A stretch of 64,000 nt of DNA from assembly GCA_949300385.1 (NCBI GenBank), contig CASGDZ010000001.1, forward strand, positions 6,152-70,151. The letters are read 5' to 3'. Positions within the stretch are counted from its first letter, which is position 1; every line of letters begins with the position of its first letter. Of the stretch, positions 1 through 45,608 are shown piece by piece. The position numbers and the translations under genes are program-made. Source of the stretch: an uncultured Christensenella sp. (GTDB lineage Bacteria > Bacillota > Clostridia > Christensenellales > UBA1242). The notes below the pieces were generated by a model. That model searched no databases. It had not been told where the DNA came from and was given only the letters and a program-made list of their open reading frames with translations.

Positions 1-1
1 T

Positions 2-826
2 ACCTTTTTCACAGAGTACATGTCTAAATCCTAAAAAATCAATTCCGTTTTTAAGCCTGCCAATTTGTGTTTTGCTGTTAAGGGATAAATCAAGTTCTTC
101 CTTTACACATTTTTCGATTTCTTGTTTGCAGAATTTAAGATATTCTTTATTGTTATGAACTAAAATCATGTCGTCCATATAGCGAACGTAATACTTTATT
201 CGTAGTTTTTCTTTAATCAATCTATCAACCTTGTTCAGATAAAATAATGCAAACCATTGGCTTGTTTGATTTCCAATAGGAAGCCCAACTTTTGTGTCGT
301 TGTTTTTGCTTTGTAATATGGTGTTTATAAACCATAAATCTTCTTCATCAAGTGATGTTTTTGCCAGATTTTTAAGTAAAATTTCGTGATTAATGCTTTG
401 AAAATATTTTTTAATATCACATTTCAAAAAATATCCAGACTCGCCAAATTTGTGATAATAATTCTTTAAAAATTTATGCAATCTTTGAATGCCAAAAAAT
501 GTTCCTTTGCCTTTTCGGCAAGCAACATTGTCATAAATTAAAGATTTTTCTAACTTTTTCTCAATTATATTCGAGCAAAACGCCATTAACACAACTCTAT
601 CCTTGTATGAAAGTGCTTCAATTATTCGTTCTTTTGGCTCAAATATTTTAAATATTTTATATTTGCCCGGTTTATATTTTTTACTAAAAATGTCTTTTGA
701 TAAACTAGTTAAATTTTGTGATATATTTATTTCAAAGGAGACTGTATCTTTCCTATGTTGCTTAGAAACTCTGCACTTTTTGTGTGCGTCAAATAATTTT
801 TCAAATGTAAAAGCTTCTTCTAACAA
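2..826 (-). CDS. DGR-type reverse transcriptase (5' part; runs off the left window edge)
   Basis: Manual minus-strand translation from TTG at 826 (AAGGAG at 835-840): LLEEAFTFEKLF...FEPKERII...KCDIKKYFQSI...GLPIGNQTSQWFA...YYVRYMDDMI...GIDFLGF. GxxxSQ plus YMDD is the DGR RT signature. Missing from the ORF track because it has no stop in the window. Confidence 0.95.
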   Translation of the reverse strand, partial: MLEEAFTFEKLFDAHKKCRVSKQHRKDTVSFEINISQNLTSLSKDIFSKKYKPGKYKIFKIFEPKERIIEALSYKDRVVLMAFCSNIIEKKLEKSLIYDNVACRKGKGTFFGIQRLHKFLKNYYHKFGESGYFLKCDIKKYFQSINHEILLKNLAKTSLDEEDLWFINTILQSKNNDTKVGLPIGNQTSQWFALFYLNKVDRLIKEKLRIKYYVRYMDDMILVHNNKEYLKFCKQEIEKCVKEELDLSLNSKTQIGRLKNGIDFLGFRHVLCEKG

Positions 827-855
827 ATTATATGCTCCTTTATATATTTAAAACG

Positions 856-946
856 ATGGTCATCTTCCTTTCGGTAAACTTTCAAAGATTTCTCGTTGAT
901 TGTCAAGATGACCGTATTCTTCTATCTCTTATAAAGAGAGTAGAAA
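856..946 (-). other. Structured DGR spacer between TR and RT
   Basis: Inverted repeat ATGGTCATCTT (856-866) / AAGATGACCGT (905-915) plus a second hairpin at about 920-946, in the position of the DGR RNA 3' spacer. Confidence 0.5.
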
Positions 947-1041
947 AGATAAGATTCCTTTGCCTTACACACTGTATTGTTTTACATAAAACAATCATAA
1001 ACTGGCTGTTTTTTAACAAGCGGAAACTCGTTCTTCAAAGG

Positions 1042-1152
1042 CAAATCTGGACACAGCCCAGCGCTCTTTTTGTTTGCATTGTTATTGTTAAGCGAGCCAT
1101 CATTTTTAACTTTGTTTACATTATTCTTAGTGTTGGCCGAGCGCAGCCAAAA
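1042..1152 (-). repeat. DGR template repeat (TR)
   Basis: Lies between avd and RT. The minus strand reads WLRSANTKNNVNKVKNDGSLNNNNANKKSAGLCPDL, rich in AAC/AAT codons and matching the WLRS...G...GxxPxL C-terminal pattern of Firmicute DGR targets. Boundaries are approximate. Confidence 0.85.
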
Positions 1153-1209
1153 GAGACCAGGTTAAACAACAATCTTATCTTAATTAAAGCGTCGCCGCTA
1201 TAATCCAAT

Positions 1210-1779
1210 TTATTTGCAAAATCTATTGGCATCACTTTTACGCCAAGCAACCAAAAGATTTATACAATCGGCCACTTGTAGAGAAATTTGTTCATACTGT
1301 TTTTTAAGTATGCACCCACTTTCTAATGATAAGAAGGACATATATCCAAGCAGCTTTAATTTTAAAAATGCTTGATGTTGACACTCTTTTCTTCTTTCTT
1401 TGTTTTTAATGTTATCTATCCGCATTGAGTTGGCTTCAATAAGATATTCAAGACAATCTAAACAGTAATTTTGTATTCTATTTACAAAAACAGCACGAAA
1501 TTTTTTTGGGGATTTTTCTGTTATAGTTATCACATAGGCAGATAGTTTTTTAGTTTTCGTAATAACGAGTAATTCGCTTGAATTTTGCCTTATCTTTGTG
1601 TCTTTGTCAATATCTTCGAGTTCCTGTAAAAAAACTTTATTTTCTAAAAATTTCTTTTCATTTCCTTTTGCAACTCCTTTAGCAGTTGCAATTTTATCTT
1701 CGTCACTTTCTTTTCTGTTATCGGCCATAGGAATGGTCATTTGAAGCTGGCTCCATTGATTTGTTCCTTGTTTATCCAT
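1210..1779 (-). CDS. avd: DGR accessory variability determinant (Avd-like four-helix bundle) with N-terminal extension
   Basis: Basic helical protein (ELLVITK...SPKKFRAVFVNRIQ...LIEAN...QYEQIS...LLVAWRKSD) directly upstream of TR and RT. Confidence 0.88.
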   Translation of the reverse strand: MDKQGTNQWSQLQMTIPMADNRKESDEDKIATAKGVAKGNEKKFLENKVFLQELEDIDKDTKIRQNSSELLVITKTKKLSAYVITITEKSPKKFRAVFVNRIQNYCLDCLEYLIEANSMRIDNIKNKERRKECQHQAFLKLKLLGYMSFLSLESGCILKKQYEQISLQVADCINLLVAWRKSDANRFCK

Positions 1780-2059
1780 AAAACTTAATCTCCATCATTT
1801 TTACAAGTCTATAGGTTTTATATAATTTATTTTTAAAATATTTTATCATATTTTATTTATTGTTTCAATAAATTTTTCAAGATAGAAATTTTAAACATTT
1901 ATATAACTGTTCAAAAAAAACTATTAAAACTCAAATAAATTTATTCATTTTTAAAAAATATTATTTAACACATTATAACAAGACTTTTAACTATAAAATA
2001 AGAGATTTTAAGGGATTTGATAACACTAAAACAACTTGAAAAATAAATTTTATTTACAC

Positions 2060-2104
2060 CTCTTAATCAGTGGGTCCGGGGTTCGAGTCCCCGAGGGTCC
2101 ACCA
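2060..2104 (+). mobile_element. tRNA-Lys(CTT) 3' fragment, probable att junction of an integrated element
   Basis: CTCTTAATCAGTGGGTCCGGGGTTCGAGTCCCCGAGGGTCCACCA starts exactly at the anticodon loop and ends in CCA. No tRNA 5' half lies upstream. Confidence 0.8.
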
Positions 2105-2111
2105 CGAAAAC

Positions 2112-2140
2112 AAAAGCACTAGATAAGTCTAGTGTTTTTT
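2112..2140 (+). terminator. Intrinsic terminator after the tRNA fragment
   Basis: GCACTAGA-TAAG-TCTAGTGT hairpin followed by a T run. Confidence 0.7.
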
Positions 2141-2144
2141 ATTA

Positions 2145-2295
2145 GGACCCACTGATTAGGGGTCCCCATAAGTTAATGAAGTAGACTTATGGAGTAAAGG
2201 CAAAAGCAAATGAAAAGGCGAATTTGCATAAAGCAAATCGCGAAGAATGAGACTTTTGTCGCGGGTCCGGGGTTCGAGTCCCTGAAGGTACATCA
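2145..2295 (-). repeat. tRNA-associated element, family B, at tRNA-Lys(CTT)
   Basis: Second tRNA 3' copy at 2263-2295 (29/33 identical). Core has CCTTTACTCC-hairpin-GGGGACCCC on the minus strand. Bases 2145-2158 are an inverted copy of tRNA 2065-2077 region (TAATCAGTGGGTCC). Confidence 0.75.
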
Positions 2296-2329
2296 ACAAA
2301 AAATGAAAAATATTCGTTCTTTTTTATGA

Positions 2330-2884
2330 TTAAAAATTGTTATAAATATTAAAGATTTTTATCTCTGCATTTTTAAAATTTCTTAAATGTTTAGGATTGT
2401 TAAAATCAATATCGACTTTAGATATTATATCGGCAAGAAAACTAGCAATTACATTGTGAGTGACAATTAATACATTTTCATATTTGTTATTTGATATTAT
2501 TTCATTTATAAAATTTTTAGCCCTTTTAAAAGCACTTTCGTACGATTCCATTCCACAACTAGCACTACGCATAGATTTTAAAATTTTTTCTTCTTCGGTC
2601 AAACCTGCTTTTATTTTCCCTGAAAATATACCTTGGTCAATTTCAATTAGTCTATTATCTTTAATAATTTTAACATTATGATATTTATTCATAATATTTG
2701 CTGTCTGCATAGTTCGCATTAGGGGAGAAGAAAAAATAATGTCAAATTTTGTATTTTTGAATATATTAGCAGTTTGTTCTACCATGAATTTTCCTGTTTG
2801 ACTCAATCTATTATTTCTATAGCCTTGTGTTATTCCCTTTTCGTTCCAAATAGTCGTTCCGTGACGCAATATATATATTTTCAT
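2330..2884 (-). CDS. Histidine phosphatase (phosphoglycerate mutase family)
   Basis: RHG motif at the N-terminus, SSPLxR, late VTH. Confidence 0.9.
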   Translation of the reverse strand: MKIYILRHGTTIWNEKGITQGYRNNRLSQTGKFMVEQTANIFKNTKFDIIFSSPLMRTMQTANIMNKYHNVKIIKDNRLIEIDQGIFSGKIKAGLTEEEKILKSMRSASCGMESYESAFKRAKNFINEIISNNKYENVLIVTHNVIASFLADIISKVDIDFNNPKHLRNFKNAEIKIFNIYNNF

Positions 2885-3042
2885 TTTTGCTCCAAAATAA
2901 TAAAAGATTAAATAGTGTTATTTCATTGTATCATAAAATATAAAAATTGTAAATTTTATTGAAATTTTATATGATCAATTATCTAAAATTAATTCATTTT
3001 TAATAATTTTTGTAATATAATTGTTGTAAAGGTGGATTAAAT

Positions 3043-5217: not shown

Positions 5218-6270
5218 ATGAAAAAAATTGTATTTACAGGTGGCGGAACTTTAGGGCATGTAATGCCAAATTTGTATTTGATTGAAGACCTTTCAAAAAA
5301 ATATGAAATTAATTACATAGGTTCAAATGGTCTTGAAAAAAACATGGTCGGGAATAAAAATATTAATTTTTATGAAATACCGACTGTTAAACTTGTTAGA
5401 GGTAAAATATTAAAAAATCTTAAAATTCCTTTTGTTTTAATTAAATCAATTTATAAAGCAAAAAAATTATTAAAAGAAATCAAGCCAGATATCATTTTTA
5501 GTAAGGGCGGGTATGTTTCGCTCCCTGTTTGTATTGCAGGACGAATGTTAAATATCCCTATTATTGCGCATGAGAGTGATTATTCATTTGGACTTAGTAA
5601 CAAAATTATTTTAAAATTATGCAATAAAATGTGTGTTAATTTTGAGCATTTAACAAATAAAGATAAAAAGATTATTTATACGGGTCCAATTTTTAGTCGC
5701 GAATATGAAATGACTGAAAAAGCAAAAAAACTTAAATTAGACAAAAATAAACAAACCCTTTTAATTGTTGGCGGGTCATTAGGTTCAAAAAAAATTAATG
5801 AATTGATTTATTCCATTTTGAACGATTTGTTAAAAAATTTTAATGTCATTCATATTACAGGAAAAGGAAATAAAAAATACGATTCTTTCGATAATTACAA
5901 TGCCTTTGAATCTTTTAATAATATGGTTGAATTATATAATTCGTGTGATATAGTAATTGGAAGAAGTGGAGCAGGTGTTACAAGTGAGAGTTTTTACAAG
6001 AAAAAGCCAATGTTACTTATTCCACTTGAAAATAGTGCTACGCGTGGCGACCAACTATTGAACGCAAAATTCTACGAAAATTTAGGTGTGGCAGAAATAT
6101 TGCGTGAACCTGACTTGAATGCAAATAAATTATTGACGACTATAAAAAATATAAGTAAAAATTTAGTAAAATATAAAGATAATTATTCACATATAAAATT
6201 AGTTAATGGTCGTCAAACAATTTTAAAGTTAATAGATGAAATGTTATCAAATAATTCATTGATTAAATAA
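5218..6270 (+). CDS. murG: UDP-GlcNAc:lipid I N-acetylglucosaminyltransferase
   Basis: GGGTLGHVMP, KGGYVSLP, GGSLGS and RSGA motifs. Confidence 0.95.
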   Translation: MKKIVFTGGGTLGHVMPNLYLIEDLSKKYEINYIGSNGLEKNMVGNKNINFYEIPTVKLVRGKILKNLKIPFVLIKSIYKAKKLLKEIKPDIIFSKGGYVSLPVCIAGRMLNIPIIAHESDYSFGLSNKIILKLCNKMCVNFEHLTNKDKKIIYTGPIFSREYEMTEKAKKLKLDKNKQTLLIVGGSLGSKKINELIYSILNDLLKNFNVIHITGKGNKKYDSFDNYNAFESFNNMVELYNSCDIVIGRSGAGVTSESFYKKKPMLLIPLENSATRGDQLLNAKFYENLGVAEILREPDLNANKLLTTIKNISKNLVKYKDNYSHIKLVNGRQTILKLIDEMLSNNSLIK

Positions 6271-7362: not shown

Positions 7363-8247
7363 CTAATTTGAAGCGATATTTTGGATTAATTTTTCTGCAA
7401 TCACAAATATTTGTTTGCTTTCAGAAGTGGAGCAGGTTTTTAATTTCTTTTTTGTAGGTTGTCCACATATGTTAAAGATTTTTGGGCCTATCCATTCGTG
7501 ATAATCGCACGAACTATAAATTCCTTTTAATACATTCAATGTCGCTTTTTCTACATTTGGGAAAAGTAGTTTTATTCCAATTTTCACTAACCAATTTATT
7601 GCTTTCGGATAATGATTTGTCATATTTGTCAGTGTGACGCCAGGGTGGACGATAGACAATTTAACTTTTTTTTCTCGTTTAAATAACTCATATAAACTAA
7701 ACATCAAGAAGCGCTTTGAATTTCCATAAATTTTGCTTGATTTTTTTTCATTAGAGAAATCAATATCATTTTTGTTTATCTTCGAATAATTGTGAGCAAT
7801 ACTACCGAGTGCAATAACATGTCCGTTTGTTTGTTGTAAATTTTTAAACAAATTTTTTACCATGATATATTGCGATAAAAAATTAATTTGAAATATATTG
7901 TTGTATCCCAATTCTGTTTTGTATATAGGTACATTGTATACACCGGCGTTTAAGATAAGTATGTCAATAGAAAAACTTTTTAATTTTTCAATTGCATTAT
8001 TTAAAGACGATATATTTGATAAATCACATTCAATTATATGGATTTTGATTTTTTCATTATTATTTTTTAAATCATGTGCTTGTTTTTCAGCCTTATTCAT
8101 ATCTCGATCAATCAAAATAAGGTTTGCGTTTAATTTTGCGAGATATCTGCATACACAATTTCCAATACCGCCTGTTGACCCAGTTATTGCAATTGTTTTA
8201 TTAGATAAATCGCTACAATTATCATCTATCCACTTATTTATATTCAT
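7363..8247 (-). CDS. Short-chain dehydrogenase/reductase
   Basis: TGSTGGIG, LNAG, YGNSK (YxxxK) and HPG motifs. Confidence 0.92.
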   Translation of the reverse strand: MNINKWIDDNCSDLSNKTIAITGSTGGIGNCVCRYLAKLNANLILIDRDMNKAEKQAHDLKNNNEKIKIHIIECDLSNISSLNNAIEKLKSFSIDILILNAGVYNVPIYKTELGYNNIFQINFLSQYIMVKNLFKNLQQTNGHVIALGSIAHNYSKINKNDIDFSNEKKSSKIYGNSKRFLMFSLYELFKREKKVKLSIVHPGVTLTNMTNHYPKAINWLVKIGIKLLFPNVEKATLNVLKGIYSSCDYHEWIGPKIFNICGQPTKKKLKTCSTSESKQIFVIAEKLIQNIASN

Positions 8248-8307
8248 GCTTCAATTATAATACAAAAACATGAAGAAATAAAGCGAACTATTAGGATAAA
8301 TAAAAAA

Positions 8308-8435
8308 TGGTGCGTCAAGAGGGGTGAGCGCGTAAAGAAAACAGTTAATAACTGTTTTTAGCTAGCGAACGGGAGCAATCTATGATTGCGGTCCGCCCGA
8401 CAAGGGTCGAACCCGAAAGAGGGGGTTCGAATCCC
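8308..8435 (+). repeat. tRNA-associated element, family A, at tRNA-Arg
   Basis: 16-bp copy of the tRNA end (8308-8323), 72-bp core shared with 10122-10193, and 8421-8435 equal to the exact reverse complement of 8469-8483. Confidence 0.85.
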
Positions 8436-8455
8436 AAATCTATATAATAAAAAAA

Positions 8456-8532
8456 TGGTGCGTCAAGAGGGATTCGAACCCCCGACCCCCGCCTTAGAAG
8501 GGCGATGCTCTATCCAACTGAGCTATTGACGC
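8456..8532 (-). tRNA. tRNA-Arg(TCT)
   Basis: Cloverleaf, anticodon loop CTTCTAA, GTTCGAA T-loop, CCA end. Confidence 0.95.
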
Positions 8533-8748
8533 ATACCAAATACACAATATTTTACCATTATAAAATATCTTTGTCAATAATTTCGTGTAAAATTTACAAA
8601 TTTTTATATTTTATTGTAAGTTTATATGTTTAATTTATATAAAATTCAATTATTGTGTTTTCATTTAAATATGGATTTTAAAAATCTGATATTGACAATT
8701 TGAATGTTAATGTTATAATATTAACAAAATTTAAAAATAGGAGAGAAT

Positions 8749-9618
8749 ATGGAAGAATTTAAGAAAAATGACAAATATGATGAGGCAATTTTAAAAAGTA
8801 ATGATCGATTCAAATATTTTGTTAAAGAAGTTGAAAATATGAATTTAAGTACTATTTTAAATTTTCAAATTCCTTTAGAAATATCAAAACAATTAAATGA
8901 ACAAAATATTCAAATTGTAAATTGGTTTAAATTATTTGAAAGTTTTGATATTTGTTCAGTAAGTGATTTATCAGAAAAAATGGATCGAGTTTTTGTAAAA
9001 TTCGTTTTTGATAAGAATACAAATCAATGCAAAGCATTAAAATTATTATCAAAAGATAAACTTAATGAAATAGTAATAGAAGGAGAAGAATTAACGGATT
9101 TAATAAATGTATTGAACTTAAATGGAGTAGATGTTAATGTACCATATCGCCGATATACTATAAATGATTATATTCGATTAGATATGTTTGATAAAAACTT
9201 TCAAACAAATTCACATGAAGAAATTTTAAAAAATTTACAAAAAATGAGTTGCCAATTATTCAAACAAGATAGCTTTACCTTATTTTATATTAAGCAAATG
9301 ATTAAAGAAAAGATCATGCCACTAATAGAAGAATTGAAATCTATACAAAAAGCATGTGACATTAGTGAGAAGCAAAGAGAAATTAATAAATTAATTTCAT
9401 GTTATAAAGAAATTTTAGAAACTAAACAATACGAGTATAAGTTATATCAAAGAGCGCAAGATCTTAAAAATGGAGGATATGGCGCATATGTAAAATATTT
9501 AACTAGTATGTTGGATAAATTCCACCACAATAGAATTGATGATACAATTGTTAACAAAAATGAAATTAAGGCAAAAAATTGCGAACAATTAATGAACGAT
9601 TTTAATAATAATTTATAG
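8749..9618 (+). CDS. Hypothetical protein
   Basis: 289 aa ORF with AGGAG RBS and a TTGACA-17-TATAAT promoter upstream; no recognisable motif. Confidence 0.75.
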   Translation: MEEFKKNDKYDEAILKSNDRFKYFVKEVENMNLSTILNFQIPLEISKQLNEQNIQIVNWFKLFESFDICSVSDLSEKMDRVFVKFVFDKNTNQCKALKLLSKDKLNEIVIEGEELTDLINVLNLNGVDVNVPYRRYTINDYIRLDMFDKNFQTNSHEEILKNLQKMSCQLFKQDSFTLFYIKQMIKEKIMPLIEELKSIQKACDISEKQREINKLISCYKEILETKQYEYKLYQRAQDLKNGGYGAYVKYLTSMLDKFHHNRIDDTIVNKNEIKAKNCEQLMNDFNNNL

Positions 9619-9764
9619 AATTTAGGTAAGATAACACAAAAATACAAGGAATTATCTTAAAACTTTAATATTTTTTAGTAGATTGCTATAAATTCAAAAA
9701 ATTAATAAAAACAATATATTGACATAAAACAAAAAATCCGCTTTTAAATCGGCGGATTTTTATA

Positions 9765-9838
9765 TGGAGCGGGTGAAGAGAATCGAACCCTCGTAACTAG
9801 CTTGGAAGGCTAGCGCTCTACCATTGAGCTACACCCGC
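9765..9838 (-). tRNA. tRNA-Gly(TCC)
   Basis: Cloverleaf, loop CTTCCAA, CCA end; terminator hairpin at about 9732-9761. Confidence 0.95.
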
Positions 9839-10078
9839 ACGATGAATACAAGTATATTATCATATTTTTTTCGTAGTTGTCAAGATAATTTATTATGTTT
9901 TTCAAAAATATTTAAGTCTTAATAATAATTTTATTTAAAATTTTTTAAAAATTTTGTAAAATTCACTTGTTTTTTTCATTTCTATGTTGTATAATACAAA
10001 AGTCGCAAACATAAAAGAGTTGTTCACTCATATAAAATCATTTATTCAAACACAAAAATTTAATATACCAAATAATAT

Positions 10079-10226
10079 GGTTCATTAGCTTTAGGTGAGA
10101 GCACATGACTTTTAATCATGGGTGAGCGCGTAAAGAAAACAATTGATAATTGTTTTTAGCGAGCGAACGGGAGCAATCTATGATTGCGGTCCGGTTCCGA
10201 CAGGAGATCCCGGTTCCCTGGGACAC
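10079..10226 (+). repeat. tRNA-associated element, family A, at tRNA-Lys(TTT)
   Basis: Copy of the tRNA 5' half through the anticodon arm (10079-10121, D-loop altered), shared core 10122-10193, and 10217-10226 matching the reverse complement of GTGTCCCGGG at 9/10. Confidence 0.85.
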
Positions 10227-10253
10227 AAATATCTTAATATATCAAACTAATAT

Positions 10254-10329
10254 GGTTCATTAGCTCAGTTGGTAGAGCACATGACTTTTAATCATGGTGT
10301 CCCGGGTTCAAGTCCCGGATGAGCCACCA
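10254..10329 (+). tRNA. tRNA-Lys(TTT)
   Basis: Cloverleaf, loop CTTTTAA, CCA end. Confidence 0.95.
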
Positions 10330-10362
10330 TTTTATTTTAAGTGGCATTTAATAATGTCATAT

Positions 10363-10526
10363 GCGGATGTGGCGAAATTGGCAGACGCGCGCGTCATAAT
10401 GCGCTTTTTAGTCAATTTGCTAAGCGCAAATATAGACCTTTCGGCGATTATTCCTTTCCCCATTAGACTTTTGTCTAACGTGGACCCCGAAAGTCTAGCG
10501 CTAATATAGTCCATAGTATAATGACG
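10363..10526 (+). repeat. tRNA-associated element, family B, at tRNA-Leu(TAG)
   Basis: 28-bp exact copy of the tRNA 5' end (10363-10390), core with TCCTTTCCCC-hairpin-GTGGACCCC, and 10491-10501 equal to the reverse complement of tRNA 10574-10584. Confidence 0.85.
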
Positions 10527-10549
10527 ATAAACTTATATACAACAAAAAT

Positions 10550-10632
10550 GCGGATGTGGCGAAATTGGCAGACGCGCTAGACTTAGGATCTAGTGGGTGA
10601 CCGTGGGGGTTCAAGTCCCTTCATCCGCACCA
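10550..10632 (+). tRNA. tRNA-Leu(TAG)
   Basis: Cloverleaf with variable arm, loop CTTAGGA, CCA end. Confidence 0.95.
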
Positions 10633-10751
10633 TACAAGAATAAAACGAACCTTGAGAACTCAAAGTTTGTTTTTTAATATAATTAAATTCGACATATTTT
10701 TGTATTTTAGTTGCATCTATTTCAAGTATATTATATTATATTATTATTTAC

Positions 10752-11319
10752 ATGTATATCACGTCGCAAATTCTAGTTTTTATAGGATTAATCATTGATT
10801 TAATAGGTAAGTGCTTAAAAAGGAAAGGTCAAGTTTTAACTTTCAATATTATAGCATCAATTTTTTATACTCTAAGTTATGTATTTTTAATAAGTTGGTT
10901 AGGAGTGATTGTAAATTTCCTAAATCTTGTTAGAAGTTTATGGTTTGTTTATTTGACGAAGAAAGATAGCGGATATAAAAAATACATTTTTTCCAATTTT
11001 TTGCATTTTATTCATTTTTATAATAAATATGTTTATCTTTTGGAATAATGCATTAGATTTAATACTTTTAGCATCAATATCAATATCAACTATTGGTTTT
11101 TCTTTAAAAAATATGTTTCATGTTAGAATTTCAATGCTTATAAATGGATTTTTATTTATTGTCTATAATTTTACATTACAAGGATATGTTAATATGTTCT
11201 GTGATTTGACCGGTATAATTATATCTATAACATTTATAATTATTTACGATATCATACCTTATATTAAAAATAAAAAATCAATTAAAAACTCTAATAATAA
11301 AATGGAAGAAAAAACTTAA
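10752..11319 (+). pseudogene. YgjV-like inner membrane protein split by a +1 frameshift
   Basis: Two hydrophobic ORFs (10752-11048 and 11029-11319) join in frame if one T is removed from the T6 run at 10987-10992. Confidence 0.6.
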
Positions 11320-11427
11320 ATAATATTTAAGATTTTTAAGTTTTTTGATTTTATTTGTTAAAAATAATTGACTTTTTTGTTTTTTATGCTAATATTATCT
11401 AGTACACTTTTAAAAATTGTACTTTAT

Positions 11428-11502
11428 TGGGGTATCGCCAAGCGGTAAGGCACAAGACTTTGACTCTTGCATGCGGTAGTTCGAATCTACCTACCCCAGC
11501 CA
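11428..11502 (+). tRNA. tRNA-Gln(TTG)
   Basis: Cloverleaf, loop CTTTGAC, CCA end. Confidence 0.95.
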
Positions 11503-11583
11503 TATAACATATTCGTAAACTAGTTAGGTTTTGATTATTCTAATGGTTTAGAGTGTGCTATTTATTCTTATCAAGATTCGTAT

Positions 11584-11660
11584 GGTGGCTATAGTTCAGT
11601 TGGTAGAGCGCCAGATTGTGGATCTGGTTGTCGTGGGTTCGAGTCCCTCTAGCCACCCCA
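11584..11660 (+). tRNA. tRNA-His(GTG)
   Basis: Cloverleaf with G-1, loop TTGTGGA, CCA end. Confidence 0.95.
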
Positions 11661-11842
11661 TTAAGTCGTGTTTTATACACGATTTTTTTTATTTATAAGT
11701 AAAATTAAAACACAAAAAATTAAATTTAATAGAAAATATTTAGGATAAAAATTTCTTAAAATGATAAAAAAGATTTTAAGTTTTGTTTATTTATGATATA
11801 ATAAATTTATCAATAAATAGGAAATAAATGATAGGGGTATTT

Positions 11843-14203
11843 ATGGATAAATTTTCAACTAATGAATATTTGACAAAACTTGACGGATATTGGCGGGCTA
11901 CAAATTATCTTTCACTAGCACAATTATATTTACTTGATAATCCGCTAATGCGTGATCACGAACTGTGCATGGACGACATTAAGAAAAAACTTGTTGGACA
12001 TTGGGGAACTGTGCCGGGGCAAAATTTTATTTATGCGCATTGCAACAGAGTTATTAACAAGTATAATCTTGATATGATATTATTGTCAGGGCCGGGACAT
12101 GGTGGCAATTTTTTGACATCTAACTGTTATTTGGAAGGAACATATAGCGAGTACTATCCCAATATTTCGCGTGATAAAGAGGGAATGAATCGCTTTTGCA
12201 AGCAATTTTCTTTCCCAGGTGGAATAGGCTCGCATTGTGTGCCTGAAACGCCAGGCTCTATTCATGAAGGCGGAGAGTTGGGATATGTGTTAGCGCACGC
12301 ATATGGTGCGATTTTAGATAATCCAAATTTAATATCAGTTGCGATTGTTGGCGATGGAGAAGCAGAGACAGGTCCGCTGGCGACTTCGTGGCACAGCAAC
12401 AAGTTCATTAATCCAAAGACGGATGGCGCAGTTTTGCCTATACTTCATTTAAATGGATATAAGATAAGCAATCCAACTATTTTGTCGCGTTTAAGCAAAA
12501 AAGAATTGACTGACTTATTTAAAGGATATGGGTACAATCCATATTTTGTTGAGGGGTGTGATCCCATGAAAATGCACGCGCTTATGGCACAAACGATGGA
12601 TAAATGTATTGAAGAGATTAAGTCAATACAGACTATCGCGCGTGAAAATAAGGAATATGTGCGCAAACCTTTCCCTATGATAATACTCCGAACACCAAAG
12701 GGGTGGACATGTCCAAAAATGTTAGATGGAAAACAAATAGAAGGAAGTTTCCGCGCACATCAAATCCCGCTAACACAGGACAATAAAGACTTCTTAGCTA
12801 TATTAAAAAATTGGTTAAATTCATACAAACCAAATGAACTTTTTGACAAAAATTATCGTTTAAAGCGTGAATATTTTAGCATTGTTCCAAAACCTGAAAA
12901 ACGCATATGCGCTAGTCCATATGCAAATGGTGGCAGATTATTAAAACCGCTAAAAACACCTAATATTGACGATTATGCTGTTAAATTTAAAGGTCATGGC
13001 ACGATCAAGGCGCAAGACATGCTTGAATTAGGTGGATATATTCGCGACATATTTAAATTAAATAAACGCAATAAAAATTATAGGATATTTAGTCCAGATG
13101 AGGCGATGAGCAACCGATTGTATAAAGTTTTTGAAACAGAGAATAGAGACTTTAATGCAACAATTTTACCGACGGACGACAAACTTTCGCCAAATGGCAG
13201 AATCATGGATTCATTTTTAAGCGAACACGCGTGTGAAGGCTGGTTAGAAGGATATTTGCTTACAGGTAGACATGGAATGTTCAATAGTTATGAGGCGTTT
13301 ATTCGCGTTGTAGATAGTATGGTTGCGCAACACGCTAAATGGCTAAAAGTTTGCAACGAAATACCATGGCGCGCGCCAATATCATCGTTAAATTTGATTT
13401 TGACTAGCAATGTATGGCAACAAGACCACAATGGATTTACTCATCAAGACCCAGGATTTTTGGACCATATGGCAAATAAAAAAGCAGATGTAGTTCGAAT
13501 ATATCTCCCTGCGGATGCAAACTGCTTGTTGTCCTGCTATGACCATTGCGCAAATAGCAAAAATTATGTCAATTTAATAGTCGCTTCAAAGCACCCGACA
13601 TATCAATGGCTAAGCATGAAAGAGGCAAAAGTTCATTGCAAGAAAGGGGCTAGCGAATGGAAATGGGCGTCCGTTGGTGATAGCAAAAATCCTGATGTTG
13701 TGATTGCGTCATGCGGAGATACGGCGACAATTGAAAGTTTAGCTACCATTAGTCTAATCAAAAAATATTTACCTGAATTAAATGTAAAATTTGTCAATGT
13801 AGTTGATTTGATGAAATTAGTACCGAGCGACTCGCACCCACATGGTATGACGGACAAAGAATATGATGAACTTTTCACCACAAATAGTCCTATTCTATTT
13901 AATTTCCACGGATATCCTCAACTAATTCACATGTTGACATATAAACGCCATAATCATAATAATTTGCATGTCGCTGGATATATGGAAGAAGGCTCAATAA
14001 CTACTTCATTTGATATGCGCGTTAGAAATCATATTGATAGATATCATCAAATTTTAAAATTATTGAACTATATAAATGTTGATGAAAGTAAAAAGAAAGA
14101 GTTAAAATCGCTTATGGAGCAAAAGTTAAAAGAACATCATGACTATATTGTTGAATATGGGGTAGATATGCCAGAGGTGGCGGATTGGTATTGGAACAAT
14201 TAA
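11843..14203 (+). CDS. xfp: Xylulose-5-P/fructose-6-P phosphoketolase
   Basis: GHWGT, GPGHG, EGGELGY, GDGEAETGPLA and QDHNGFTHQDP motifs. Start at 11843 or 11828. Confidence 0.96.
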   Translation: MDKFSTNEYLTKLDGYWRATNYLSLAQLYLLDNPLMRDHELCMDDIKKKLVGHWGTVPGQNFIYAHCNRVINKYNLDMILLSGPGHGGNFLTSNCYLEGTYSEYYPNISRDKEGMNRFCKQFSFPGGIGSHCVPETPGSIHEGGELGYVLAHAYGAILDNPNLISVAIVGDGEAETGPLATSWHSNKFINPKTDGAVLPILHLNGYKISNPTILSRLSKKELTDLFKGYGYNPYFVEGCDPMKMHALMAQTMDKCIEEIKSIQTIARENKEYVRKPFPMIILRTPKGWTCPKMLDGKQIEGSFRAHQIPLTQDNKDFLAILKNWLNSYKPNELFDKNYRLKREYFSIVPKPEKRICASPYANGGRLLKPLKTPNIDDYAVKFKGHGTIKAQDMLELGGYIRDIFKLNKRNKNYRIFSPDEAMSNRLYKVFETENRDFNATILPTDDKLSPNGRIMDSFLSEHACEGWLEGYLLTGRHGMFNSYEAFIRVVDSMVAQHAKWLKVCNEIPWRAPISSLNLILTSNVWQQDHNGFTHQDPGFLDHMANKKADVVRIYLPADANCLLSCYDHCANSKNYVNLIVASKHPTYQWLSMKEAKVHCKKGASEWKWASVGDSKNPDVVIASCGDTATIESLATISLIKKYLPELNVKFVNVVDLMKLVPSDSHPHGMTDKEYDELFTTNSPILFNFHGYPQLIHMLTYKRHNHNNLHVAGYMEEGSITTSFDMRVRNHIDRYHQILKLLNYINVDESKKKELKSLMEQKLKEHHDYIVEYGVDMPEVADWYWNN

Positions 14204-45420: not shown

Positions 45421-45452
45421 AAATTAAGATAGTTAAAATTTATACAATATAA

Positions 45453-45608
45453 GTCGTAGTGCTAAAGGCGCACAGGACGGGGACCCCGCAAATATTTATA
45501 TTTGAAGGGGAAGAGGAGTAATCTTACTATAAATATTATTGCGAGTGTGGCGAGCAATATATAAAGATTGCTGATTACGACGAGCGTCTGCCATTTCGCC
45601 ACACCGGC
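45453..45608 (-). repeat. tRNA-associated element, family B, at tRNA-Leu(TAA)
   Basis: 25-bp exact copy of the tRNA 5' end (45584-45608), core TCCTCTTCCCC-hairpin-GGGGTCCCC, then GTCCTGTGCG (45469-45478), the reverse complement of tRNA CGCACAGGAC. Confidence 0.85.

Follow-up and report, generated by a model that had tools for sequence, protein, structure and literature searches.

What places the same short, folded sequence beside two different transfer RNA (tRNA) genes, once antisense and once sense to its neighbor? The question arose in a 64,000-nucleotide (nt) stretch of DNA from an uncultured Christensenella sp. (positions 6,152 to 70,151 of contig CASGDZ010000001.1; hereafter the window), part of an 838,645-base genome of 31.2% G+C (G000). 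An initial annotation of the window had described two 72-bp copies of a core sequence, identical at 68/72 positions, and a repeat search agreed with it by recovering them as a 74-nt direct repeat with 95% identity (8322-8395 and 10120-10193; repeat family D1). Annotation of the tRNA genes confirmed the opposite orientations, with copy 1 antisense to tRNA-Arg(TCT) at 8456-8532(-) and copy 2 sense to tRNA-Lys(TTT) at 10254-10329(+). These are the only two full copies in G000 (E 2.8e-33 and 7.5e-28), the other two matches having E values of 0.35 and 4.25. We refer to the core and its relatives as family A. As argued below, we assign a probability of roughly 0.5 to the reading that this module is a discrete, non-autonomous insertion unit of about 85-87 nt, defined by its fold, which enters tRNA genes or tRNA-like hairpins after GG at a stem/loop boundary.

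A conserved four-helix core

Alignment of copies from relatives revealed that the family A core is 85-87 nt long and comprises four helices: P1, hairpin 1, P2 enclosing hairpin 2, and P4. The conserved unit continues 11-13 nt beyond the 72-bp repeat, to 8406 and 10206, and this extension is a small hairpin, yCC-GACA-GGr; the 3' boundary of the core had therefore been drawn about 12 nt too short. The module begins with 5' G(G)GUGAG and ends with CCGACAGGnn 3'. In other subfamilies the P1 of the window copies (Table 1) is represented by GAAAUAGCG paired with CGUAAUUUC, or by GCGACGC paired with GCCAAAGC. Hairpin 1 consists of 11 bp of free sequence, P2 pairs CGGG with UCCG, and P4 has 3-4 bp and a GACA loop. 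Between these variable helices lie near-invariant junction bases, namely CGUUAAG and UAGC, which link hairpin 1 to P1, together with CGGGAG, CGGUCYGG and CGACAGG.

The two window copies differ at four positions, every one of which belongs to a compensatory pair or is unpaired. Two of the changes, G>A and C>T, form the compensatory pair that had been noted in one hairpin (hairpin 1, CAGTT/AACTG versus CAATT/AATTG). The third lies in the loop of the same hairpin (AAT versus GAT), and the fourth at a bulged position of P1 (GCTAGCG versus GCGAGCG). Hairpin 2 (GCAATC-TAT-GATTGC) is the same in both copies, also as noted.

The initial annotation had proposed that the structure is under selection and had named covariation in a larger alignment as the test. 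A covariance model (R1) was made from 11 copies, and 111 matches, 108 of them distinct, were aligned. Over the 108 distinct copies, 92.8% of cells were able to pair, compared with 70.3% in shuffles, counts that are favored by the fitting of this alignment (A3) to the R1 structure. The margin over the controls is large despite that fit. Changes on both sides were found for 28 of the 30 pairs, against 19.7 in shuffles, and for 642 individual cells, against 186 +/- 11 in shuffles (0 of 500 reached 642) and at most 124 in slid controls. The covariation score was 0.515, compared with 0.161 in shuffles (0 of 500 reached the observed value) and at most 0.101 in slid controls. Covariation is thus present in the larger alignment, and the compensatory changes exceed those of the controls, as is the case for a structured RNA or single-strand element under selection.

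Three columns change only in ways that keep the pair on the core strand (GU in 76 copies and AU in 27; GC in 60 and GU in 39; GU in 84 and GC in 11). The core strand also folds 3-11 kcal/mol better than its complement in 15/15 copies; fold z-scores did not separate the strands (-2.1 to -3.1 on both). Because of the G-U signature columns and the better folding of the core strand, we conclude with moderate confidence that the fold acts on that strand, as RNA or as single-stranded DNA.

A search of relatives with the covariance model, as had been recommended, found at least one R1 match at E <= 0.001 in 44/64 genomes of the genus, with 0-6 copies per genome. In the order, matches were present in 24/151 genomes and 21/96 genera, and the half containing P1 and hairpin 1 was the best conserved. 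Carriers are bacteria with small, low-GC genomes. A strict pattern matched five stretches of metagenome contigs, two of them real copies (L154 and L157), and one stretch of viral contigs, by chance, with no real copy there. A loose pattern scan of genome contigs gave at least 120 stretches, and among the matches listed none was the element. No blastn match to the module was found in phage records or plasmid records.

A scan of window positions 7500-12500 against Rfam 15 at E <= 1 returned only tRNA and chance matches overlying tRNAs, with nothing at 8322-8406 or 10120-10206, and five further loci gave one tRNA only at the gathering score. The core thus matches none of the RNA families in Rfam 15, which include self-cleaving ribozymes, T-box RNAs and transfer-messenger RNA (tmRNA). 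Possible likenesses of the core to the tmRNA 5' motif, T-box sequence or the 11-nt tetraloop receptor were considered, and none is claimed. Full-text searching of the literature gave no description of such an element in the search listings and abstract openings.

Copies at fixed tRNA positions

To follow up a recommended tally of insertion points, we classified 110 copies by their neighboring tRNA. Those that could be placed stand at fixed positions in tRNA genes. In 56 of the 110, the core is antisense to the tRNA and its upstream flank ends 15-18 nt from the tRNA 3' end (at exactly 16 in 43 copies), across 14 different tRNA genes. This junction is the boundary between the T-loop and the 3' strand of the T-stem, tRNA position 60/61. 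Sense copies account for another 14: Lys at 44/45 (10 copies), Leu-AAG at 38 (3) and His at 19 (1), their junctions falling, respectively, where the variable loop starts, on the 3' side of the anticodon loop and in the D-loop at G18G19. Other families of the order likewise have insertions in the D-loop. One copy, at a contig end, was unreadable. The upstream flank always ends in GG(G), overlapping the first G's of the module. Strand independence, as initially proposed, therefore holds in part: both orientations occur, yet not randomly, since 56 antisense copies share one boundary and the 14 sense copies occupy three other sites. A replication-strand rule for the orientation was rejected: on one contig (G009:C58) copies lie on both strands within 1.3 kb, so that orientation follows the tRNA and not the direction of replication.

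The 5' junction, immediately after GG, is sharp. At the 3' junction, the module gives way to target sequence, an inverted copy of the intact target and a direct repeat. Beyond P4, target sequence resumes for 5-9 nt, about 3 nt being absent, and is followed by a tip of 2-6 nt and then by the reverse complement of the uninterrupted target, which in antisense copies crosses the junction by 3-8 nt and at Lys stops at it. A few bases separate this inverted arm from a direct target repeat and the intact tRNA. The direct repeat is often exactly the last 17-19 nt of the tRNA and elsewhere, at 46-94 nt, takes in the terminator or part of the 5' flank; across copies the repeat lengths span 13-20 nt to about 94 nt. 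The target palindromes beside the core are near-perfect, and the fold-back agrees in every case with the local tRNA (CGGAC in a tRNA-Gly, for instance, and TTGAAC in tRNA-Arg(CCG) and Leu). In the window, the terminal hairpin of tRNA sequence that had been described after each core was confirmed at both loci, as was the duplicated flank before the displaced piece (repeats D6 at Arg and D14 at Lys; Table 1). Whole units also occur in tandem arrays (L005, L032, L181, L233 and L232).

We then considered displaced tRNA 3' ends. Among 64 distinct downstream copies of the last 15 nt of a tRNA, 54 lie directly against an antisense family A core (30 by pattern, 24 by eye) and 8 against a sense-oriented relative, while of the other two one is itself a second tRNA and one lies beside masked bases; these loci were picked for holding the module, and their showing such ends never alone is to that extent biased. 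The unbiased scan, that of the whole G000 genome, agrees that displaced tRNA 3' ends do not stand alone. Empty tRNA-end hairpins that could have been pre-existing targets were found neither in the biased sample of module loci nor in the scan of G000. A decayed copy of the first ~50 nt of tRNA-Lys(CTT) was observed in G000 (C4:1277-1400), 23 nt upstream of the intact gene and with no core between them.

Comparison of cores indicates that the module is separable from its targets. By identity only, and with target labels that are partly inferred, the nearest core relative has a different tRNA and a different genome for 53 of the 110 copies, and the same target in another genome for 34. The fold-back fits the local tRNA while cores mix between targets; therefore the target-derived parts would be made at each insertion. 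Presence varies at a single locus among sister species, tRNA-Arg(TCT) having one copy in G000, two tandem copies in G032, a short form in G034 and none in G007 and G016. In a further case (L017), the module forms a plain insertion in a tRNA-3'-end-like repeat, without fold-back or extra repeat, and an uninterrupted version of that repeat lies about 600 nt away.

Insertion unit or resident RNA

The module has defined boundaries and a defined fold, occurs at many tRNAs in many genomes and has a reproducible flank layout. These features describe a discrete unit, and we infer that it is mobile, a DNA strand that ends in GG undergoing copy-choice or template switching. The fold would be needed in single-stranded form, whether in RNA or, during insertion, in DNA. 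A strand ending in GG would switch to a module template at GGG, where it shares microhomology with the module 5' end, and would then switch back to the target. The palindromic TTCGAA or CCCGGG may guide a flip onto the complementary-sense target strand, giving the fold-back. Copying would resume upstream, so that 16 nt to about 90 nt of the target are duplicated, sometimes through the terminator or 5' flank, and the tRNA is made intact again. The same event, or an immediate repair, would also copy the target, only events that rebuild the tRNA being expected to survive. An essential single-copy tRNA would be lost to a plain insertion, and the surviving copies would accordingly be those in which the target was copied too.

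The initial annotation had suggested snap-back synthesis. That proposal suits the near-perfect target palindromes beside the core, although one copy, the plain insertion at L017, has no fold-back. Simple self-priming on the new strand is inadequate because the inverted arm copies uninterrupted target. A template switch onto the intact target strand fits better. The argument for a DNA-level event from strand independence is supported in part: both orientations occur, with orientation tied to the tRNA and to fixed positions.

Several observations weigh against a mobile unit. In addition to the model-fitted alignment, the strand signature is confined to three columns, and elsewhere G-U (48) is about as frequent as A-C (54). 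Candidate enzymes do not follow the module: a reverse transcriptase (RVT_1) occurs in 11/64 genomes, with the module in 6/11 genomes that have one and 38/53 that do not; an IS200-type transposase (Y1_Tnp) occurs in 8/64, and the best comparison of insertion sequence (IS) ends with R1 scored 10.4 bits (E 1); TnpB (PF07282) was above the family cut-off in 0/64 genomes; and the single tyrosine recombinase of G000 (C1:142143-142679) is about 126 kb away. No matching tRNA lay within 500 nt of 39 of the 110 copies, 12 of these being at most 350 nt from a contig end and many of the rest having a tRNA-3'-end-like flank. Neither a circular or free form of the module nor an insertion polymorphism within a species was seen. 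Finally, the 12 copies at the Lys locus have retained the core and, in the displaced piece, the anticodon arm, while their flanks have diverged beyond alignment; this conservation could mean host function rather than mobility.

Such a function is the substance of one alternative, in which the module would be a structured RNA of tRNA transcription units that benefits the host (a leader, a processing or decoy element, or possibly a self-cleaving ribozyme at the 5' edge), kept by selection and multiplied only by local duplication. Near-invariant junction bases between variable helices, as in ribozymes and riboswitches, and the G-U signature on one strand are consistent with it, as are the conservation at the Lys locus, where the core is sense and inside a tRNA operon, and the occurrence in 21 genera of the order. 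We nevertheless consider it unlikely, given that, among the 70 copies that could be placed, 56 run antisense to the tRNA and follow its terminator in reverse complement, and that a promoter scan upstream of the Arg copy found no promoter-like site. Copy number varies from 0 to 6, 20/64 genomes of the genus have no match at E <= 0.001, sister species differ in its presence at the same tRNA, and no Rfam family matches at E <= 1. Moreover, local duplication is unable to reach more than 14 different tRNAs with locally matching fold-backs. In a second alternative, RNA-mediated insertion, a reverse transcriptase would jump at GG/CC microhomology, and the chimeric cDNA of tRNA or pre-tRNA and module would enter a tRNA gene through target priming or by recombination. 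Both the inverted piece and the variability of the target repeat would follow from this, and the repeats often end at RNA ends: at CCA (17-19 nt), at the end of the terminator T-run, or 0-4 nt from the tRNA 5' end. One precise microhomology junction, with the other junction and the repeat length variable, is also the pattern of target-primed reverse transcription, and the one reverse transcriptase of G000 lies 7.5 kb from copy 1. The proposal is quite improbable, in that the enzyme is found in few genomes and does not follow the distribution of the module, its weak bAvd-like neighbor points the G000 enzyme to a diversity-generating retroelement, antisense and sense types would demand module RNA of both polarities, and several repeats reach into 5' flank that does not look transcribed.

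A recombinase acting in trans is the basis of the remaining alternative, according to which the loci are scars or minimal cassettes of site-specific recombination, with the displaced tRNA end as an attR-type repeat and the core with its inverted arms as a folded single-strand attachment site. For integrases that target tRNAs, the identity block usually extends from the T-loop boundary to the CCA end, and many of the repeats are exactly this block of 17-19 nt. CTX phage, with Xer, and integron attC use folded single-strand attachment sites, and the inverted arms of the module, about 90 nt apart, resemble the CTX attachment hairpin. Tandem unit arrays, and arrays at tRNA-Asn that mix the module with cassettes bearing open reading frames (ORFs) and bounded by tRNA-3'-end-like repeats, point the same way. 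We hold this alternative to be highly doubtful. Tyrosine recombinases (PF00589) are present in 61/64 genomes (187 matches), yet of the 150 matches listed not one comes closer than 3 kb to a copy; those nearest are 5-13 kb away in 4 genomes, and G000 has one such gene. With arms that match the local tRNA and cores not grouped by target, more than 14 tRNAs would each require a dedicated site built anew; in sense copies it is the 5' part of the tRNA, and not the 3' part, that is duplicated; the palindrome tips are 2-6 nt, with no overlap region of 6-8 nt beside the junction; and nothing was found in phage or plasmid records.

Further identities were considered. A retroelement was set aside on the grounds that the reverse transcriptase is neither linked to the module nor co-occurring with it. 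The only reverse transcriptase of G000 is encoded at window positions 2-826(-) (RVT_1, E 3.7e-20; the frame runs past the window start), and the adjacent ORF at 1210-1779(-) has a weak bAvd-like match (E 4.7e-4, below the family cut-off); the two probably represent a diversity-generating retroelement, of which no template or variable repeat was found in window positions 1-3000. A palindrome-associated derivative of IS200/IS605 (PATE) is contradicted by the lack of related ends, the IS200/IS605 hairpins that we read being unrelated to the module, and by the rarity of the transposase; a remnant of a TnpB/IscB guide RNA (omega RNA) is contradicted by the TnpB count. For a tRNA-integrase att site, a recombinase gene near the element was looked for and none lay within 3 kb among the matches listed; as for the att-type identity block, antisense copies with 17-19-nt repeats have it, other repeats reach the terminator and sense copies duplicate the 5' part. 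The module is not a miniature inverted-repeat transposable element (MITE), its ends (GGGTGAGCG... and ...CCGACAGG) not being inverted repeats and its target repeats being of variable length. An intrinsic terminator formed by hairpin 1 and its T-run was also dismissed, neither window copy being flagged by a terminator scan; in several copies the T-run is replaced (for example by GGTCAGTAGCC or GACTGTCAGTAGCC). The module thus fits no known mobile element or RNA family among those tested.

Comparison with established systems shows likeness in part to each. tRNA-targeting integrative elements likewise use a tRNA site, leave the tRNA intact with a displaced end fragment on the far side, and accrete in tandem. 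In contrast to them, the module unit is only ~150 nt, has no recombinase of its own or linked to it and has an RNA-like covarying core, while its sense copies duplicate the tRNA 5' part, an inverted target copy is always present, and its cores move among more than 14 tRNAs. PATEs and repetitive extragenic palindromic (REP)-type repeats are also small, non-coding and strand-specific, with compensated hairpins, insertion after a short specific motif and no terminal inverted repeats; however, the IS200 ends in the genus are unrelated, 37/44 carrier genomes lack the transposase, and the module has a fold with long-range helices instead of two end hairpins, as well as long target repeats and fold-backs. 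The CTX attP/Xer system and integron attC share the reliance on structure over sequence, the strand specificity, inverted target-like arms about 90 nt apart, and arrays, whereas the module targets many tRNAs with arms copied from the local target and has no linked integron integrase or phage genes. With R2, which occupies 28S rRNA genes and has a 5' self-cleaving ribozyme, and with Penelope-like elements, which have an inverted "tail", the module shares one position in an abundant structural RNA gene, one sharp and one variable junction, a variable target repeat, an inverted end piece and a structured 5' part. The module differs from them in being bacterial, 87 nt long and without a linked reverse transcriptase, in having target sequence as its inverted piece, and in matching no known ribozyme.

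If the module is the insertion unit that we favor, it would be a bacterial element that finds tRNA genes by structure and GG, rebuilds its target gene and needs no linked enzyme, a combination outside insertion sequences, MITEs, integrative islands and known retroelements. More tentatively, it is possible that it represents a new class of site-specific mobile element: an 87-nt folded module, perhaps a ribozyme or a self-recognizing single strand, that homes to GG at tRNA stem/loop boundaries on either strand and whose insertion is coupled to fold-back and partial target duplication, regenerating the essential tRNA. The space flanking tRNAs would in that event be a site of cassette accretion without a dedicated transposase or integrase gene. 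As an RNA gene, by contrast, the module would add an order-wide structured RNA that as yet has no name, linked to tRNA loci and conserved in its junction bases. In both cases it accounts for the many palindromes and pseudo-tRNA fragments around the tRNA genes of these reduced genomes, the model lets annotators recognize such units, and the loci offer a tractable case of repeated rearrangement by fold-back and duplication.

The two loci and similar arrangements elsewhere

Features of the two window loci are collected in Table 1. The Lys fold-back, TCCCGG-TTCC-CTGGGA-CAC, has an arrangement seen in 10 of the 12 Lys-type copies.

Table 1. Features of the tRNA-Arg and tRNA-Lys loci, in window coordinates.
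Feature	Position	Strand	Evidence and details
Displaced tRNA-Arg(TCT) last 16 nt (T-stem 3' strand, acceptor 3' strand, CCA) with ~12 nt of 3' flank	8296..8323	-	D6, 93% repeat of 8444-8471; repeat length 30; GGG at core junction
Core copy 1, family A	8322..8406	+	Covariance model 78.1 bits, E 2.7e-15; fold -26.8 kcal/mol, z -2.14
Layout of core copy 1			P1 GUGAGCGC with GC-AA-GCGAAC, tandem G.A; hairpin 1; P2 CGGG with UCCG around hairpin 2; P4 CCC-GACAA-GGG
Arg fold-back, target-derived	8407..8435	+	Sequence; inverted tRNA-Arg match at 8421-8435
Parts of Arg fold-back			TCGAACCC (antisense tRNA-Arg T-loop continued, ~3 nt missing); loop GAAAGA(G); GGGGGTTCGAATCCC (reverse complement of target across junction)
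Spacer; right part, 8444-8455, is repeated tRNA-Arg 3' flank	8436..8455	+	D6
Intact tRNA-Arg(TCT)	8456..8532	-	ARAGORN; Rfam tRNA 70.5 bits; own promoter-like site 8577-8549 (promoter scan)
Displaced tRNA-Lys(TTT) 5' flank and positions 1-44	10062..10121	+	D14 (10070-10090, 95% repeat of 10245-10265); D3 (10098-10121, 100% repeat of 10274-10297); 12 Lys-type copies compared
Detail of displaced tRNA-Lys piece			tRNA part from 10079; D-loop decayed; anticodon arm intact; GG at junction
Core copy 2, family A, layout as copy 1 with P4 TTCC-GACA-GGAG	10120..10206	+	Covariance model 89.7 bits, E 6.5e-18; fold -26.3 kcal/mol, z -2.86
Lys fold-back: ATCCCGG (tRNA-Lys ~47-53), loop TTCC, CTGGGACAC (reverse complement of tRNA-Lys ~45-53, one change)	10207..10226	+	Sequence
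Spacer with repeated 5' flank ATCTTAATATATCAAACTAAT, before intact tRNA	10227..10253	+	D14
Intact tRNA-Lys(TTT), leading Lys-Leu-Gln-His cluster	10254..10329	+	ARAGORN, Rfam

Between tRNA-Arg and tRNA-Gly, an ORF of 289 aa (8749-9618(+)) has a perfect sigma-70-like promoter at 8692-8719; it gave no Pfam or PADLOC match and no usable protein-atlas match.

The layout of family A recurs around an unrelated core. Family B is an insert of ~160 nt upstream of three tRNA-Leu genes of G000 (TAG, TAA and CAA), at window positions 10363-10547 and 45421-45608 and at C2:219479-219664. The first 25-28 nt of the tRNA are followed by the insert, in which the reverse complement of the target spans the junction, and then by a promoter-like stretch and the intact tRNA; one copy opens with a terminator-like hairpin (10389-10404). 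A module related to family A, sharing P1 and hairpin 1 and differing in its 3' half, was seen at L160 (967-1032), L234 (352-448), L235 (610-677), L163, L219 and L267. It is sense-oriented and flanked by an inverted T-arm piece on one side and, on the other, by a displaced tRNA 3' end (Gly, Thr, Ser and Leu-TAG); therefore the flank scaffold is the same and the insert is flipped.

Downstream of tRNA-Asn in two genomes, cassettes form arrays (L017, 1587-2729, in G021; L180, 215-1600, in G035). They are bounded by a tRNA-Asn-3'-end-like repeat, a T-arm-like hairpin (GAGGYGG, a 12-13-nt loop, CCRCCTC) and a terminator; the ORFs that they carry (73, 113 and 346 aa) gave no match in Pfam or PADLOC. 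This layout resembles integron-style accretion, here at a tRNA. A dispersed repeat, GGGKTCCCnCnAG...CGnAGTGGGAA, fills tRNA-proximal spacers in the tRNA-Arg flanks of G007, G034 and G016 (L256, L257 and L258), and is itself a target of family A insertion, upstream of the core, in two genomes (L162 and L171). The window has one weak match to this type of repeat (2160-2172), as do 29 of 100 shuffles. At two further loci, L008 (G029:C11) and L025 (G016:C39), truncated tRNA-Glu 3' ends of ~25 nt adjoin a conserved sequence in which TTCTACTCAG motifs recur; a larger integrated element might end there, at the same T-loop position.

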